35,211 nt of DNA from a virus (lineage: Duplodnaviria; Caudoviricetes): IMG/VR virus record IMGVR_UViG_3300037310_000508, positions 1 through 35,211 of that record; one strand, 5' to 3'. Shown here piece after piece: positions 18,603 through 34,193 of the stretch. The translations under genes and the position numbers were made by a program. The notes below the pieces were generated by a model. That model worked only from the letters and a program-made list of their open reading frames with translations. It was not told the origin of the DNA and did not search any database. How positions within the stretch are numbered: the stretch's first letter is position 1; the number at the start of each line of letters is the position of its first letter.

Positions 18603-19160
18603 TTAAAAGATAAAAATTCCGTTGGGGGCACTGCGTCCCAGCAACTCGGTTTTGGCCGTCGCGTCGAGGCCACTTAATTTACTCTCCTTGAGCGGGCCGC
18701 CGATGATGAGCGGAATGCCCGCCTCCGCCGCCCCGTCCACGCCTTCGTCAGCGATGCCCTGCGCGACTTGCGAACCGTCGCTGCCCAAAACGAACGCGCC
18801 CGATGCTACCGCCACCGCCGCATTCGCAGTCAAAGTGAGGATGTTGGTGACGAGATTGACTCCTCCGGCGGCAACCGTGCCGATATTGGCCCCAGCATTG
18901 TTGGTGATAACGTCGCCAGGCTTAAACAACGAAGCGTCAGCCACCTGGCCTGTTGCCGAGTTAGTGGCAAAGCCCGCGCCCGCCGCCGTCGTTCGCGTGC
19001 GCCGACGACCCAGCCCTGAAGAGGTAATGACCCCGATAACTCCGCCACGCGGCGCGGCCAGACCAGCAGCCATCGTGAGGCCAGTGATGACCAACTCATC
19101 AGCGCGGGTCGCCGCTAGCGATTCGAGAGCAGGAAAGGTTTCAACGGTACTGGTTCCCAT
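18603..19160 (-). CDS. Head decoration protein
   Basis: DGSQVAQGIAD...I.GG......L.GLD...K..L motif; between protease and capsid. Confidence 0.75.
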   Translation of the reverse strand: MGTSTVETFPALESLAATRADELVITGLTMAAGLAAPRGGVIGVITSSGLGRRRTRTTAAGAGFATNSATGQVADASLFKPGDVITNNAGANIGTVAAGGVNLVTNILTLTANAAVAVASGAFVLGSDGSQVAQGIADEGVDGAAEAGIPLIIGGPLKESKLSGLDATAKTELLGRSAPNGIFIF

Positions 19161-19765
19161 TATTTTTTCTCGCCTCCGTTTTCTATTTTCAAGCCCATAC
19201 CAGCGCGTAACACTTCAACTTCCTTCGGATTGGGCTGGGATAAATCCATATCTCCCACAGCCATATCGCCGAATTGTTCGCCGAACTGGATGTAGGCGGG
19301 CATAGCGCCAAAGAAATTCTTCGCCCAGTCAAGGCGCGAGAATTTGTGTTCAGTGCGTTTGCCGCCTTCGCCTTCAGAGAAACAGACCACCGCCAATTCC
19401 TTGTCGGCGGCGTCGGCGACGGCGAGGGATTCGAGGAACTCCACCAGGCCGACGCGCTTCATCCAGGGCGGGCATTTGTCCGCGCCCAGCGATTCGACAA
19501 ATGACACGATTTCGGCGTGTTTGCTGTTAGTCGCCTGAGACTGAACTTGTTGCCGAAGCTCGAGGATTTCAGCGTCGGCTTTCTTCTGCGCTTCCGCAAA
19601 TTCCGCCCGCAACTTTTCCTCAGTCTTAGCGGCAGTTTCCGCCGCAATACGTTCAGCGTCGGCTGCGCTGAAACTAGCCGTTGGGGGCGCGGCAGGATTG
19701 CCGCCACCAAGCAATGACCTGAACCACTCGCCAGCGGTCATTTTTTCTTCTGGTTTGTCTGCCAT
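19160..19765 (-). CDS. Nested in-frame scaffolding protein (Mu gpZ-like)
   Basis: In-frame ATG (MADKPEEK) preceded by GAGGA SD, right after the protease domain. Confidence 0.6.
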   Translation of the reverse strand: MADKPEEKMTAGEWFRSLLGGGNPAAPPTASFSAADAERIAAETAAKTEEKLRAEFAEAQKKADAEILELRQQVQSQATNSKHAEIVSFVESLGADKCPPWMKRVGLVEFLESLAVADAADKELAVVCFSEGEGGKRTEHKFSRLDWAKNFFGAMPAYIQFGEQFGDMAVGDMDLSQPNPKEVEVLRAGMGLKIENGGEKK

Positions 19766-20200
19766 AGGTTCCTCACTGAAAGAGATTTCGACGGTAACTG
19801 CGTCGCCGCCTGTAAACTGAATGTCGCGCAAGCCTTTAACCGCCGGCGGTTGCGCCCCTAAAAATCCGACATGGCGCAAACGCGGCCCGTCCTTCAAATA
19901 AAAACTGGCCGAGCGGTTTTTGAATCGCCGCGCCGCGACCATCTTCTCGAATTCGTCGTCGGTGTCGCCAAACTGCGCCCATAAACTGCCGTCCGAAAAT
20001 TTCAAGGCTGTGGCCCACCCATACGCCGGCGCGTTTTCTTTGGGGTGGCCTATCACTGCCGGGGCTTCGTTCGGTTGAAAGGATTTAACGACCTGCTCAA
20101 AGAAGGAAGCGTCCAGATTGCGGTCAATGCCCGCGCTATCCGTGACCTGTCCCGTCCGGCAAATCTCAATCCATTGCCCGTTGAAGCCTTGTTTCGCCAT
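19160..20200 (-). CDS. Prohead protease / scaffold (Mu gpI-like)
   Basis: WIEI.RTG, APAVIGHP...PAYGW, SASFY, LRHVGFLGAQPPAVKGL motifs. Confidence 0.9.
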   Translation of the reverse strand: MAKQGFNGQWIEICRTGQVTDSAGIDRNLDASFFEQVVKSFQPNEAPAVIGHPKENAPAYGWATALKFSDGSLWAQFGDTDDEFEKMVAARRFKNRSASFYLKDGPRLRHVGFLGAQPPAVKGLRDIQFTGGDAVTVEISFSEEPMADKPEEKMTAGEWFRSLLGGGNPAAPPTASFSAADAERIAAETAAKTEEKLRAEFAEAQKKADAEILELRQQVQSQATNSKHAEIVSFVESLGADKCPPWMKRVGLVEFLESLAVADAADKELAVVCFSEGEGGKRTEHKFSRLDWAKNFFGAMPAYIQFGEQFGDMAVGDMDLSQPNPKEVEVLRAGMGLKIENGGEKK

Positions 20201-20209
20201 AGTCTAAGC

Positions 20210-20488
20210 CTAATCGTTGTCTCGCTTAGTTACAGCGAATTTTGGATACTCAGTATTGTGGGGGCCGTCGGCCCAGCCCTTTGTCAATTCCTCTTCACGA
20301 TACCAGCGTCCGTCCGTCGTATCCGGTTCGTCGTGGGGATGGTATTTAATGTCGTAGTCAATAACCGTGCCACTTTCGCCACGCCTCAAGCCCGTGCCGG
20401 TGCGCGTAATTACCCCTATGACCTCAGCGCGGCTGCCGCACTCGGTAACCGCATCGCCAATCTCAAATTTGGGGACTCTCTGTGCCAT
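20210..20488 (-). CDS. Hypothetical protein (SH3-like beta pattern)
   Basis: KFEIGD.V...V.G...Y.I.Y...WY.EEEL pattern; first gene after the attenuator-like element. Confidence 0.55.
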   Translation of the reverse strand: MAQRVPKFEIGDAVTECGSRAEVIGVITRTGTGLRRGESGTVIDYDIKYHPHDEPDTTDGRWYREEELTKGWADGPHNTEYPKFAVTKRDND

Positions 20489-20489
20489 G

Positions 20490-20530
20490 AAAATAAAAAA
20501 AGCCCATCGGCCTTAATGACCGATGGGCTT
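20490..20530 (-). terminator. Intrinsic terminator overlapping box B (copy 2)
   Basis: AAGCCCATCGGTC-ATTAA-GGCCGATGGGCTT followed by TTTTTATTTT. Confidence 0.85.
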
Positions 20531-20616
20531 CTCACGAGCCTCTAAAATTGCTGTTATAAAGGGCCTCTCACGGGCCTCGCTTTTGTCCTTATAATATAAT
20601 AGGACGAATTTGTAAA
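20525..20616 (-). promoter_or_regulatory. Sigma70-like promoter plus twin 18-nt boxes (copy 2)
   Basis: TTTACA(20616-20611)-N17-TATAAG(20593-20588). Box A GAGGCCCGTGAGAGGCCC at 20578-20561; box B GAGGCTCGTGAGAAGCCC at 20542-20525. Confidence 0.7.
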
Positions 20617-20618
20617 CT

Positions 20619-20804
20619 CTACCCTGCCCGCGCCACTGCGCCAGCCGGCATTCCCGTCGGCGTCCGTTGCAGCCAGTTCTGCAAAGGCAGAACAATCTTC
20701 GCCAGCCGCTTGCATTTTTTACAGACAACTTCCATCTCGGCTTGTGAATCCGGTTTGGCTTTGAATAAAAGCTGGTGACAAGAATTGCAGCGAACTTCTT
20801 CCAT
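20619..20804 (-). CDS. com: Com-like zinc-finger RNA-binding regulator
   Basis: MEEVRCNSCHQLLFKA...EVVCKKCK closely matches the Mu Com N-terminal C4 zinc finger; 61 aa. Confidence 0.82.
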   Translation of the reverse strand: MEEVRCNSCHQLLFKAKPDSQAEMEVVCKKCKRLAKIVLPLQNWLQRTPTGMPAGAVARAG

Positions 20805-20930
20805 AACTAGGTTAGGACTGGCTTAGAAACTCCCTTTCAATTGCGCCCAAAACGTCCAGAATCGCTTTGATTGACTTCTACGGCTACGACATTGATGGGT
20901 TCAACACAGGGCAAATATGCGCGAAATCCG

Positions 20931-28044: not shown

Positions 28045-28392
28045 TTAGCCAACCATTTCAGGCGGCGCAACTTCTTCATCAGGCGGGCCGTTGGGCGTCT
28101 CGAAAATCGCGCTCACGTCGGCGGTAGCCTGGCGAATGGCGGCAATTTCCTCGCTTAAATCCGGCACACCCTCAAGGGCAGCGAGTTTAGCTTCCAGGTC
28201 GGCGACTTTGGCTTCGAGAGTGGCGACACGCGCATGGCCCTCAGCCTTTTCCGCCGCGATGGACGCCTGCAACTCGCCGATAGAGTTGTTGAGTTCAATA
28301 ACTTGTTCGGACATATTTTTTATCGCTCCTATCAGTCTGTGGATTTGGTACAAAAAGATGAAGAAGCCGATGAGCGCTAACCAATACTTCAT
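28045..28392 (-). CDS. i-spanin-like protein (TM + coiled coil)
   Basis: N-terminal TM, coiled coil, ATGA-coupled to the endolysin. Confidence 0.5.
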   Translation of the reverse strand: MKYWLALIGFFIFLYQIHRLIGAIKNMSEQVIELNNSIGELQASIAAEKAEGHARVATLEAKVADLEAKLAALEGVPDLSEEIAAIRQATADVSAIFETPNGPPDEEVAPPEMVG

Positions 28393-28943
28393 AAGAGCCT
28401 CGCAATCTCGAAGTGCATACCGTCAAGCCGATTGGCGAAGTGGCCGCCCCAATAGAAGCCATGCTCATTGGCGAGAGGGACGAGTTCACGCACCGAACCG
28501 GCGCGGCCTGAAAGCGGTGGCGTTTTGCCAAGACCGTTCCACGCGGCGTTGATGTCGAACGCCGAGCCGAAAGCATGGTTCGACAACACCGAACGGCTGC
28601 CACGAATGAAACGTGGTACATACGAACCCGCATAAGTGTTGATGAGCCGCAGCAGGTTCGCCTTTTCCCACGCCGCCCACAATGCGCGAAGCTGCTCGAC
28701 GCCCAGGCGGTGGAAACGAATCACGCCGTCGCGGTGGAGACCTTCAATCCCACGCAACTGCGGAATCTCGACCTTGACGATATTCTTGGCTTCCCAATCG
28801 CCCAGAATGCGAATCGCTTCCGGGTTGCCCGGCTGCGGAGCGGCGACAAAACGAAATGAACCGAAGACGGTTTGCCGGGCCGCTGTGTTCATCAATGGCC
28901 CGAAAGCGGGACGAGGCGGAAAGTTGGGGTCATTTGGCGACAT
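28389..28943 (-). CDS. Endolysin, M15 family Zn peptidase
   Basis: R....LSNHAFGSAFDIN...WGG.F...DGMHFE; GGAG SD. Confidence 0.92.
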   Translation of the reverse strand: MSPNDPNFPPRPAFGPLMNTAARQTVFGSFRFVAAPQPGNPEAIRILGDWEAKNIVKVEIPQLRGIEGLHRDGVIRFHRLGVEQLRALWAAWEKANLLRLINTYAGSYVPRFIRGSRSVLSNHAFGSAFDINAAWNGLGKTPPLSGRAGSVRELVPLANEHGFYWGGHFANRLDGMHFEIARLL

Positions 28944-28958
28944 GGCGTTTCTCCGGGT

Positions 28959-29001
28959 AAAAGCAAAAAGCCCGCCGACCTGTTACCAGGTCAACGGGCT
29001 T
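28959..29001 (-). terminator. Intrinsic terminator overlapping box B (copy 1)
   Basis: AAGCCCGTTGACCTG-GTAA-CAGGTCGGCGGGCTT followed by TTTGCTTTT; GNRA loop. Confidence 0.85.
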
Positions 29002-29091
29002 CTCACGAGCCTCTCAAAATTCGTATTCAGTTAGGGCCTCTCACGGGCCTCCGTAGATTGCTAAATTAACGCATTACTGGAATCTAGGCAA
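28996..29091 (-). promoter_or_regulatory. Sigma70-like promoter plus twin 18-nt boxes (copy 1)
   Basis: TTGCCT(29091-29086)-N17-TAATTT(29068-29063). Box A at 29051-29034 and box B at 29013-28996 are identical to copy 2. Confidence 0.7.
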
Positions 29092-29148: not shown

Positions 29149-29373
29149 CTAGACGAGGGGGTTGGCCGGCAGGTTCGGTCTTTCTGCGCTCTTTTCAAGA
29201 TTATTTTTAACTTCCGGGTCACGGGCCAGGGCGTGACCGAGCGCGGCGTCGGACTCGGTTAATTCGTCCGCCGAGAGTTGGAGTAGCGAGGCGTATAGCC
29301 GTTGTTTGTCGAGCAACAACAGATGCCGGCGCAGGGCCGGAGATTGATACTCTTTGATGAGCGTGCGGGTCAT
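29149..29373 (-). CDS. Hypothetical protein
   Basis: ATGA-coupled to PolX; last early gene. Confidence 0.6.
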   Translation of the reverse strand: MTRTLIKEYQSPALRRHLLLLDKQRLYASLLQLSADELTESDAALGHALARDPEVKNNLEKSAERPNLPANPLV

Positions 29374-30134
29374 AATGATTTCAAACTGCTGCTGTCAAGA
29401 CGCAGTTCCGGCGCGACGAACGCCAGATTAAGAATGCGGAAAACGCCCTCTTCTTCGGGCGTGGCGATGGCTTGTTCGCCGCGATGGAGACGCCCTTTTT
29501 CGCTGTGGTAGCCGAGTTGCTTGGCGTGGGTCAGCAACGCCGTGCTGAAATCCGCCGAACCTGTGCGGATGGCGAATATCCAGCCCCAATTATCCGGTTC
29601 GCAAAGAAAGAGGTCGAGTTTAATTTCCCGGCGCACCAGGCCGCGCCAGTATTTCTTGTCGGGTAGAATGCGCCAGTTGACGAGTTCCTGCGTCGCGGGC
29701 TTTATCCACTGGACGCCCAAGTCATCAAAGACGTGACGGCCTTCATAAAGCCTATTGACGCGAGTGTTGCCCGCGCCGACGCCAAACAAATCAGGCACAG
29801 CCTCCCAAGTCGGAATGGCGCAGATTTCGATGTCCTTCACCGTTGGCTTGCGCCGGCGCACGGAACCGGCAACGGACACGCGCTCACAAAACGGCGCAAT
29901 AGTCTGCGTGATTTCGTAGGCGATTTCTTCCGCGTCAGCTAAAATCATTTTTTTCGCTTGGCTTGCCTTCCGCATACATTCCATGCTGCAAAGGGTAATA
30001 GCCAGGCCGTCGCCGCGCCGCACTACAACGCCTTCAAGTTCCAGGTTTACGCCGCCGCTTTCCGCGCTGGCGAGAATCCCATGTTGGCTAGTATCAAACT
30101 CAGCAGCGCAGTAATCACAAATTTGCTTTCTCAT
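29370..30134 (-). CDS. Minimal family-X DNA polymerase with N-terminal Cys4 domain
   Basis: AGSVRRRKPTVKDIEI, KLDLF, TGSADF, EEGVFRILNL.FV.PELR (palm + thumb); CDYC...CSMEC. Confidence 0.88.
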   Translation of the reverse strand: MRKQICDYCAAEFDTSQHGILASAESGGVNLELEGVVVRRGDGLAITLCSMECMRKASQAKKMILADAEEIAYEITQTIAPFCERVSVAGSVRRRKPTVKDIEICAIPTWEAVPDLFGVGAGNTRVNRLYEGRHVFDDLGVQWIKPATQELVNWRILPDKKYWRGLVRREIKLDLFLCEPDNWGWIFAIRTGSADFSTALLTHAKQLGYHSEKGRLHRGEQAIATPEEEGVFRILNLAFVAPELRLDSSSLKSL

Positions 30135-31636: not shown

Positions 31637-32229
31637 GCATACACCACACCGCCAGGTTTGCGGACGCTAATCCACTGGCTGTTGACGGGCGATTTCAGAC
31701 GCCCGGCGCGAATCACACGGTCAAGCAGCCGTTTGGTTAAATGCACGTCCGCGAGGCAGTAATCAACTACCGAGCCGACGGCCCCGCGCTGCCACTGGAT
31801 GGGGGCCGTCGCGCCGTCGCCGGTTTTCTCCAGCGAGAAATTGGCGCGGGCCATCGCCGAGAGGCCGTAGCCGGCGTGCGTCTCGTGGCGGTAGTCGCCG
31901 GTGACGCCGGCCCCGTGCCAGATTTCATCCAACAAGTCGTAGGATTTGCGTTCGGGCAACTCAATGCCCTGCGCCCGTAGAACCCAATCGTCAAAGCGGT
32001 AATTGTTGAAGCCGACAACCATTTCGTGCCGTTCCAGCAAAGCCCCAAACTCGCGCAGGTTGTCGCGGCAAAACACACGCGGCCGCTCGGCGATGTAGTC
32101 GTAAACCCCGATAACCGCGATGCCCATGCCGCCGTAGTCGTTCCAACCCTGGCAGTATCTAACGCCGGACTCGCGCCGTCCGTCTCGTTGGGGAATCGCG
32201 TTGCAGATTTCGATGTCGTAAATCAGCAT
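31633..32229 (-). CDS. DEDDy 3'-5' exonuclease (RNase H-like)
   Basis: Exo I YDIEI, Exo II GFNNYRFD, YDLL, Exo III YCLADV. Confidence 0.9.
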   Translation of the reverse strand: MLIYDIEICNAIPQRDGRRESGVRYCQGWNDYGGMGIAVIGVYDYIAERPRVFCRDNLREFGALLERHEMVVGFNNYRFDDWVLRAQGIELPERKSYDLLDEIWHGAGVTGDYRHETHAGYGLSAMARANFSLEKTGDGATAPIQWQRGAVGSVVDYCLADVHLTKRLLDRVIRAGRLKSPVNSQWISVRKPGGVVYA

Positions 32230-32498
32230 ACGCCTTCAAGCTCCACTAGGCCGGCAACCATGTTCGTCGCATTCACCAATTTTTCGCGCCGCGTCAAAGT
32301 GACGGGGTAGCCCTTCTGAAAACGCTCTCTGAGCAACAAGGGCATACTCCCGTCGGCAAAGGCTTGCACCAAATCTTCTTCGGCCTGAAGCGCTTGCTCA
32401 AGGAGCGCGGGCGAACCCATGATTTCAACTTCAACAGCGAATTCTTCCTCGTCGCTGAGTTCGCCGCAGAAATAGGCGATGATAGTTTTCGCGTCCAT
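32223..32498 (-). CDS. Stand-alone anti-sigma-like domain protein
   Basis: Y..GELS.EE...E.......EEDLV.AF.DG.M....RERF...Y.....RREKL duplicated helix motif. Confidence 0.55.
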   Translation of the reverse strand: MDAKTIIAYFCGELSDEEEFAVEVEIMGSPALLEQALQAEEDLVQAFADGSMPLLLRERFQKGYPVTLTRREKLVNATNMVAGLVELEGVC

Positions 32499-32977: not shown

Positions 32978-33582
32978 GCCGCCTCCTTTTTGGCGCGCCA
33001 TTGGTCAATGCCGAGTCGTTTCTTAACCACAGGCACATAATCTTTCATTTGCGCGCGGTTTACTTTCCCCCAGCCCGCCGCTTTCAAATCACGCGACGCG
33101 ATAATGTTGAGCAGTATGGCGATAAGCGAATTGGCCTCTTTTTGGCGCAACAGCGTAGCCGTGCCGTGTTTATATCTGGCCTCCAAAAATTTCCGTTGGC
33201 CTGCCGGCGACCAGCCTAAATCGTTGAATAGCACCTGAAGCGTATGCACCTGTGGTTCGCTGGCGAGGTGAATAATTCGGGCTTGCTCTTTCTTACCCTC
33301 GGCGATGGGCGAACGGTAGAGCAAATCTGTGCCTGGCAACTCGGGGTGGCTCTGCGCCTTGCGAAGGGCGTCCAACGCCAGGCCGAGTTGCTTGTCGGTC
33401 AAATCTTTGGTGGACTCCAGCGGACGGCGCAGATTGAGTTTGCGGGTCAGCCAATCCAGCCGGGCGTCACGCGATTCATCCGCGTCGCCGCGATAAAACT
33501 TTTTCCATTCAATGTTGAGCGCGGCGTTCATCTTCCGCCGCGTCGCCGGCGTCGCTGTCGGCTGTTTCTGCGCTGTTCCCAT
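32974..33582 (-). CDS. GemA / Mu gp16-like protein (DUF1018)
   Basis: R.DWL......ESTKDLTDKQL...LDAL and Q......L...LGW.......FL......L...EA..LI motifs; GGAGG SD. Confidence 0.7.
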   Translation of the reverse strand: MGTAQKQPTATPATRRKMNAALNIEWKKFYRGDADESRDARLDWLTRKLNLRRPLESTKDLTDKQLGLALDALRKAQSHPELPGTDLLYRSPIAEGKKEQARIIHLASEPQVHTLQVLFNDLGWSPAGQRKFLEARYKHGTATLLRQKEANSLIAILLNIIASRDLKAAGWGKVNRAQMKDYVPVVKKRLGIDQWRAKKEAA

Positions 33583-34003
33583 TTCGCGTTACCTCCAAAT
33601 CCACGAAAGCTAACTGCCCGGCAAGCGCCGGATAGTTGTGTTTGACAATCTGCGAGAGCGTGTAAAGTTCATCCAGCGCGACGCCGCGAAAGTACGCGAT
33701 GAAGCGGTTCATTTCGTCCAGGCTGTTGCACCACCAATAGCCCGCCGGCGCACTGCGTGATGACAGAATCGGCAATTTGTGGTTGCGCCGCAGACGGCGG
33801 ATAACGGCCTTCACCGTGCGCGGATTGAGCGGTTTGCCCAATTCCCCTACGGCCCGCCGGCGGATGTCGGCCAGGCCGATGGGAGCGTCCGCCGTGCCTC
33901 CGAGCAGTAAATGAGCAATGAAAAACTCCACGCGGTTCAACTCCCGCCCGCCGAGCGGGTCAAGTATTTCCAACTCAAATATCCTGAACTTTGGTTGCTC
34001 CAT
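33509..34003 (-). CDS. Winged-helix DNA-binding protein (start probably MEQPK)
   Basis: RTVKAVIRRLRRNHKLPILSS....GYW pattern. Confidence 0.7.
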   Translation of the reverse strand: MEQPKFRIFELEILDPLGGRELNRVEFFIAHLLLGGTADAPIGLADIRRRAVGELGKPLNPRTVKAVIRRLRRNHKLPILSSRSAPAGYWWCNSLDEMNRFIAYFRGVALDELYTLSQIVKHNYPALAGQLAFVDLEVTRNGNSAETADSDAGDAAEDERRAQH

Positions 34004-34070
34004 AAGACTTGCCTCGTCAGGCGCAGGGTCGTCATCCTCTGCGCGACGCGGGGCCTCCCCCGCGTTTCGG

Positions 34071-34193
34071 CTATTCTTCCCGCAGCCGGTCAATGGCTTG
34101 GTTACACTCGTCTTCGGAATAGCCTTGAGCAGATGCCAGCGCAACAAATGCTTCATATTGGGCTTCCAAAAACTCTGCGATTACGTTGTCCAT
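34071..34193 (-). CDS. Small acidic protein (40 aa, not in ORF track)
   Basis: AAGGA SD 6 nt before ATG; MDNVIAEFLEAQYEAFVALASAQGYSEDECNQAIDRLREE. Confidence 0.55.
   Translation of the reverse strand: MDNVIAEFLEAQYEAFVALASAQGYSEDECNQAIDRLREE

Follow-up and report, generated by a model that had tools for sequence, protein, structure and literature searches.

The leader in front of the lysis genes of a Mu-like transposable phage carries two small hairpins, boxes A and B, the second of which shares its 3′ arm with a predicted intrinsic terminator. A Com-like protein encoded in the same phage probably holds box B and prevents termination, thereby acting in place of the C activator of Mu, as judged from comparisons of the leader and the protein among phages. 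The window, i.e., the whole analyzed stretch of 35,211 nucleotides (IMG/VR record IMGVR_UViG_3300037310_000508), encodes a B protein fragment, GemA-like proteins, an endolysin, a terminase, a Mu portal protein, F, a head protease, a capsid protein, and a contractile tail. Since the named relatives of the protease come from Pyrinomonadaceae and Acidobacteria assemblies, the host is probably a Pyrinomonadaceae-like member of the Acidobacteria; among 401 Acidobacteriota genomes, only distant Mu-like proteases were detected. PF08765 (Mor) had no match in the window at an E value of 1, in line with the earlier sequence-only reading, which had recognized no Mor/C activator before the lysis genes; the window spans the region from B to the lysis genes, and the genome is incomplete. 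An activator of the Ogr/Delta type was rejected as a candidate because no such Pfam match occurred among the window ORFs. Three further minus-strand genes were recorded: a 215-aa protein of phrog_2113 (33509–34156, unknown function), which adjoins a gemA-like gene and is a candidate non-Mor regulator; a PolX-like protein at the end of the middle region (29370–30134; PF14791 thumb, E 8e-11); and a short ORF with a weak anti-sigma-like zf-HC2 match (32223–32498, E 0.025).

The leader ahead of the endolysin gene (copy 1) comprises the following features:

29086..29091, minus strand: predicted −35-like hexamer TTGCCT, with a TTGNNN equivalent at 17 nt in related leaders
29063..29068, minus strand: predicted −10-like hexamer TAATTT, 11 nt before box A
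29034..29051, minus strand: box A, copy 1 (GA, 4-bp stem, 7-nt loop, C)
28996..29013, minus strand: box B, copy 1, with a 3′ arm that is the base of the terminator stem
28960..29001, minus strand: predicted intrinsic terminator with U-tract, copy 1 (15 bp, −29 kcal/mol)
28951..28954, minus strand: Shine–Dalgarno (SD)-like GGAG, outside the copy 1 hairpin
28389..28943, minus strand: endolysin (M15 peptidase, PF13539; ATG at 28943), first gene predicted to be gated by copy 1

Promoter-like site, boxes, terminator, and endolysin SD were thus located on the minus strand where the sequence-only reading had placed them. The two hexamers are 17 nt apart and match the consensus at 7 of 12 positions, which corresponds to a weak promoter, and the site is not among the predictions of a promoter scan of the window. 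It is supported by equivalents in the leaders of the relatives. The terminator hairpin (29001–28968) has 15 pairs, two of them G-U, a GUAA loop, and a U-tract behind it; a terminator scan of the window did not include it among its predictions. Coordinates and pairing bear out the claim that the 3′ arm of box B doubles as the base of the terminator. The fold of the copy 1 leader is unusually stable (z = −5.7), while the boxes without the terminator are not unusual (z = +0.3), so that the value of the leader is due to the terminator and not to the boxes. Boxes A and B had been said to differ only by compensatory changes pointing to RNA structure. There are indeed only two differences, at the paired positions 6 and 14 (C-G vs. 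U-A), but this single change is no proof of an RNA fold, because an inverted DNA operator would change likewise.

The box pattern has four exact matches in the window, arranged as two pairs, and no further match was found with up to three mismatches; shuffled windows contained 0.14 matches on average, and none of 100 reached four. Building a covariance model and searching Rfam had been proposed along with the sequence-only reading. With filters off, the model recovered only the two box B/terminator copies in the window, and no Rfam family matched the leader (one chance match to RybB, E 1.8). The second copy lies behind the gene of the Com-like protein (com):

20619..20804, minus strand: Com-like CCCC zinc-ribbon protein, 61 aa (PHROG gpCom, E 4.5e-7)
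20593..20621, minus strand: promoter-like site, copy 2 (weak −35; TATATT −10, 14 nt before box A)
20561..20578, minus strand: box A, copy 2 (box pattern match)
20525..20542, minus strand: box B, copy 2 (box pattern match)
20493..20530, minus strand: predicted terminator with U-tract, copy 2 (13 bp)
20210..20488, minus strand: 92-aa ORF without family, directly behind copy 2 (ATG 13 nt after the hairpin)
19160..20200, minus strand: head maturation protease, start of the head–tail operon (phrog_976)

The 92-aa ORF, which has no SD outside the copy 2 hairpin, sits between copy 2 and the protease gene, while in relatives the protease gene follows the leader directly. The com ORF ends 40 nt ahead of copy 2. 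No evident SD precedes it (20805–20830, minus strand), and no promoter is consistent across the clade of relatives described below. The encoded protein has an N-terminal four-cysteine zinc ribbon (C6, C9, C28, and C31); it is termed Com-like because its score against PF10122 (19 bits) is below the Pfam cut-off of 22.9. Its structure model is a four-stranded ribbon (pLDDT 73), which had no significant match in a fold search, all zinc-ribbon entries being weak and none reaching E 0.001. As a single query, the protein retrieved no relatives, and Com alignments were too variable for a locus search. Upstream of com, a second conserved non-coding block (20820–20930, minus strand) is recognizable in most of 11 clade sequences. 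It is situated between F and the head protease, the place of the central strong gyrase site in Mu.

A twin pattern with the exact loop of the window had one viral match. All other loci with this loop (40 metagenomic and 25 genomic) were discarded as chance coding repeats, none of the 65 having both stems and a terminator; because of this, the exact loop is, on present sequence collections, lineage-specific. Relatives were obtained by the protease alone, using the best 80 of 589 matches from 15 of the 64 parts of the collection. In each of the six closest loci of this set, the protease gene is preceded by two hairpins, with differing loops, and a terminator. A search with the box B pattern added five more records. 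Pattern hits in L079 and L091 and five further hits were dropped as irregular hairpins inside genes. Searched as a whole, all 10 clade records contain com, although these records trained the com profile, and each has one to five copies of box B with terminator (five in L171); the model was trained on 21 copies, and further copies are new. In L072 (6413–6775), com is located 3.3 kb further upstream and has an extra leader of its own. The genes behind the leaders in the clade include those for endolysin, portal, head protease, and baseplate J. Mor was detected in none of the 10 records, which are mostly fragments, so that its absence from whole genomes is not proven. As the records are also related, the counts are not independent.

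The covariation of the stems predicted from the window was found in box A and in the terminator stems of the relatives. The 12 different box A sequences that have a 7-nt loop are paired in all 48 cells, with double changes in three of the four pairs and one U-G pair; this result leans towards structure, since a hairpin heuristic (background 9.7%) was used to find box A. The terminator stems are paired in 93.7% of the cells, and 27 cells show double changes, higher values than in every shuffle and slide. They contain 25 G-U vs. 5 A-C combinations, although selection by fold energy favors G-U. The stem of box B is invariant, partly owing to the search pattern, but the six copies retrieved by protein share this invariance. 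In 22 of 24 leaders, box A is preceded at a distance of 9–17 nt by a −10-like hexamer TAnnnT, for which the background, most of it coding DNA, is 7.2%. None of 26 leaders has a promoter-like site between box B and the U-tract, and the gene behind the leader would therefore need read-through. The spacing between A and B ranges from 10 to 51 nt. All five spacers longer than 40 nt hold an inserted hairpin, while the other 20 are essentially unfolded, which suggests that the two boxes must stay close.

The co-occurrence of com with box-terminators held in the clade, in non-clade records, and in a scan of DNA only. The non-clade Mu-like set, chosen by protease, consisted of 39 records (34 of at least 15 kb and five shorter). 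Box B with terminator was found in four of these, twice by the model and twice only by the pattern on fetched flanks. A Com-like gene lies just upstream in three of the four, the fourth being a 7.7-kb fragment; com was found in none of the 35 box-negative records after removal of the hit in G434, which was off-frame within another gene. Six records have a completeness of 90% or more; Mor occurs in five of them, and com together with the box in the other one. No box-bearing record has a Mor match, as had been expected. Mor is present in 12 of 32 long records without the box, while none of the 13 with a box, the clade and the window counted among them, has it (p 0.01; the records are related); outside the clade alone, the exclusion (0 of 2 box-positive records) is not significant (p 0.53).

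The DNA-only scan yielded 119 loci from 33 of the 64 parts of the collection, 39 of them with only 300 nt of flank. Removal of 15 duplicates gave 104 distinct loci, from which 8 known loci and 4 with less than 250 nt upstream were left out. Of 53 boxes with a strong terminator, 29 have a Com-like ORF upstream; of 39 with a weak terminator, one does, and this lone protein is not Com. Some loci are related, so that p-values overstate the association. Among the strong-terminator boxes, a Com-like ORF is upstream of 28 of 39 whose loop ends in GA vs. 1 of 14 others; for the remaining 11 of the GA group, the upstream DNA that was retrieved contains no com. Com PHROGs are matched by 21 of the 29 box-linked Com-like ORFs, and 14 score above the Pfam cut-off. 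Five com loci of cultured phages were examined as well. At three Ralstonia phage loci, com runs straight into a methyltransferase gene, the classical layout (two annotated, one by like sequence). In Bacillus phage Slash (NC_022774; L333 985–1075), com is followed by a long-loop box with a 3′ arm that is the base of an annotated terminator; this box was spotted by eye, as its loop exceeds the limit of the script. Bacillus phage BCPST has neither a methyltransferase run nor a box-terminator behind com.

In the proposed mechanism, which the sequence-only reading had put forward and the comparisons support, the predicted promoter would start an RNA of approximately 95 nt, which would end by default at the predicted intrinsic terminator. 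The Com-like zinc ribbon would bind both small hairpins on the nascent RNA, possibly as two molecules acting together on A and B. With box B held, the base of the terminator would stay unpaired and transcription would run into the lysis genes. According to the folding model, holding box B costs 5.9 kcal/mol in copy 1 and 6.5 ± 1.4 kcal/mol over 26 leaders, and the bound protein could supply the ~6 kcal/mol needed. The residual upper hairpin would end 4–5 nt short of the U-tract; in intrinsic terminators, such shortening away from the U-tract weakens termination. As copy 1 lies upstream of com and the stretch between them contains no strong terminator, and as com has no consistent promoter of its own, a positive feedback is proposed, in which com itself would be transcribed from the gated leader. 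Against the read-through model stands the lack of a consistent promoter that would first trigger com. An uncharacterized protein such as that encoded at 33509–34156 could, moreover, be a non-Mor activator. Where the hairpin is close to the start codon, operation of the switch may in addition expose the site of ribosome loading.

This last point bears on a translational gate as in Mu mom, in which the long hairpin would mainly block ribosome loading, Com would open it, and termination would be minor. Opening ribosome loading is the known job of Com (available text of PMC6483171), and the Ralstonia phage loci show the classical layout. The start codons of 14 of 24 leaders, copy 2 among them, lie 9–16 nt behind the hairpin without an SD outside, the only SD-like bases being in the 3′ strand of the hairpin. 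For the far-start group (10 of 24, at 23–98 nt; for the three farthest, a short first gene may have been passed over), the situation is different: copy 1 and seven more have a good SD outside the hairpin. Hiding of the SD cannot explain copy 1, and termination is therefore the likely gate there. A U-tract is, moreover, kept directly behind the stem: a stretch of 9 nt contains 5–8 U in all but one of 26 leaders, and 6–7 in six copies found unselected. Translation as the main gate is thus considered unlikely. At copy 2, both layers may act, and a translational component is plausible in over half of the leaders of the family.

Two other explanations are less probable still. The boxes could be DNA sites for the zinc ribbon, serving as operators or for the loading of a polymerase modification like that of lambda Q; in favor of this, they form short inverted repeats close behind a promoter, and symmetric changes would suit DNA dyads as well. 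Box B, however, always has bases in common with the terminator base, each terminator has boxes of its own, and RNA hairpins shorten the variable A–B spacing. Between two close phages, one U-A pair has changed to U-G, which preserves pairing only as RNA of the leader strand, and we regard DNA sites as improbable. Slightly more remote is an attenuator that is real but opened by another factor, a host or phage protein, with com as a hitch-hiker. Four records (L149, L150, L157, and L170; G452–G455) have a single box B with terminator, with box A and com absent, and the BCPST locus has com without the box. In Pseudomonas syringae, com is dispensable for lscB, the expression of which was unchanged in a com knock-out (available text of PMC3899960). 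Against another factor stands the strong association of com and box across unrelated phages, most often within 110 nt, together with the resemblance of the box to the selected Com ligand. The 49 loops, too, resemble each other more within a phage than across phages (reached in 0 of 1000 permutations), a pattern that shared descent alone could give.

Beyond antitermination by the Com-like protein in the window, the balance tips modestly towards a wider role: Com-family zinc ribbons would be widespread RNA-binding antiterminators, and a single 60-aa protein would run the late programme of transposable phages without Mor/C. It would do so by holding twin hairpins at as many as five terminators, one of them upstream of its own gene (a self-amplifying switch), and would at half of the sites free ribosome loading as well. 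In the available text of PMC6240691, the wider role of com genes is stated as unexplored. Mor/C is treated as a marker of transposable phages, although it is absent from transposable prophages of Leptospira, and the late-gene switch-on in phages without Mor/C is open (accessible part of PMC8705779). No report of Com-mediated antitermination was found in the open-access literature, which excludes subscription papers and supplements; a term search of the accessible text of PMC12591593 and PMC13551039 returned nothing on Com, and "zinc" and "phage" are absent from the available text of a 2025 review. If the proposal is true, a zinc-ribbon class joins the short list of RNA-binding antiterminators, and the question of how transposable phages without Mor/C switch on their late genes has an answer that can be tested directly. 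The very small protein/RNA pair with phage-specific loops might provide orthogonal transcription switches, and the cultured phage Slash offers a test case for a com-linked box and terminator.

Among known systems, Mu com–mom is similar in having a protein of ~60 aa with an N-terminal CCCC zinc ribbon (PF10122) and a target-like hairpin (GA-stem-C…GA-stem-C) beside a longer inhibitory hairpin, activation occurring by RNA refolding. The Mu Com target given in the sequence-only reading agrees with the 19-mer printed in the available text of PMC6483171. According to the same text, Com selects GAG(N)2CC twice in SELEX and binds a hairpin loop of the form CC(N)2-3GAG. The boxes resemble this motif in part: box A fits it with a 4-nt spacer, its loop being one base longer, whereas box B closes with U-A instead of C-G. 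In contrast to mom, there are two boxes instead of one, the loop has 7 nt, and a U-tract follows the competing hairpin, which at copy 1 leaves SD and start codon uncovered. The leaders precede lysis, portal, head, and baseplate operons (one to five per phage) rather than one modification gene; endolysin and head genes lie downstream, and not an adjacent DNA-modification gene with its SD or start hidden in a hairpin.

The C protein of Mu (Mor/C; Plys, PI, PP, and Pmom) is comparable as one small regulator of late operons at matching places, in front of lysis, head protease, and baseplate genes; its lys, I, and P promoters (available text of PMC4461284) are located close to where the clade has its predicted gated genes. 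C is, however, a DNA-binding activator of initiation, while the conserved elements described here are downstream of the promoter and overlap terminators. The ANTAR regulators (EutV, NasR/NasT, and AmiR; available text of PMC3369931) share the two small hairpins, the second of which excludes an intrinsic terminator, and the control of several terminators by one protein. They differ in their hexaloops with A1/G4, compared to 4-bp stems with C…GA/GC loops of 5–8 nt here, and in their linker of 5–12 nt, compared to 10–51 nt in the leader family and 18–20 nt in the window. None of the 34 window ORFs compared with Pfam encodes an ANTAR-domain protein (the genome is incomplete), and there is no sensor domain. 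From its predicted architecture, the leader would work like ANTAR antitermination with a Com-like protein, and it is neither a member of the ANTAR family nor a com–mom switch.
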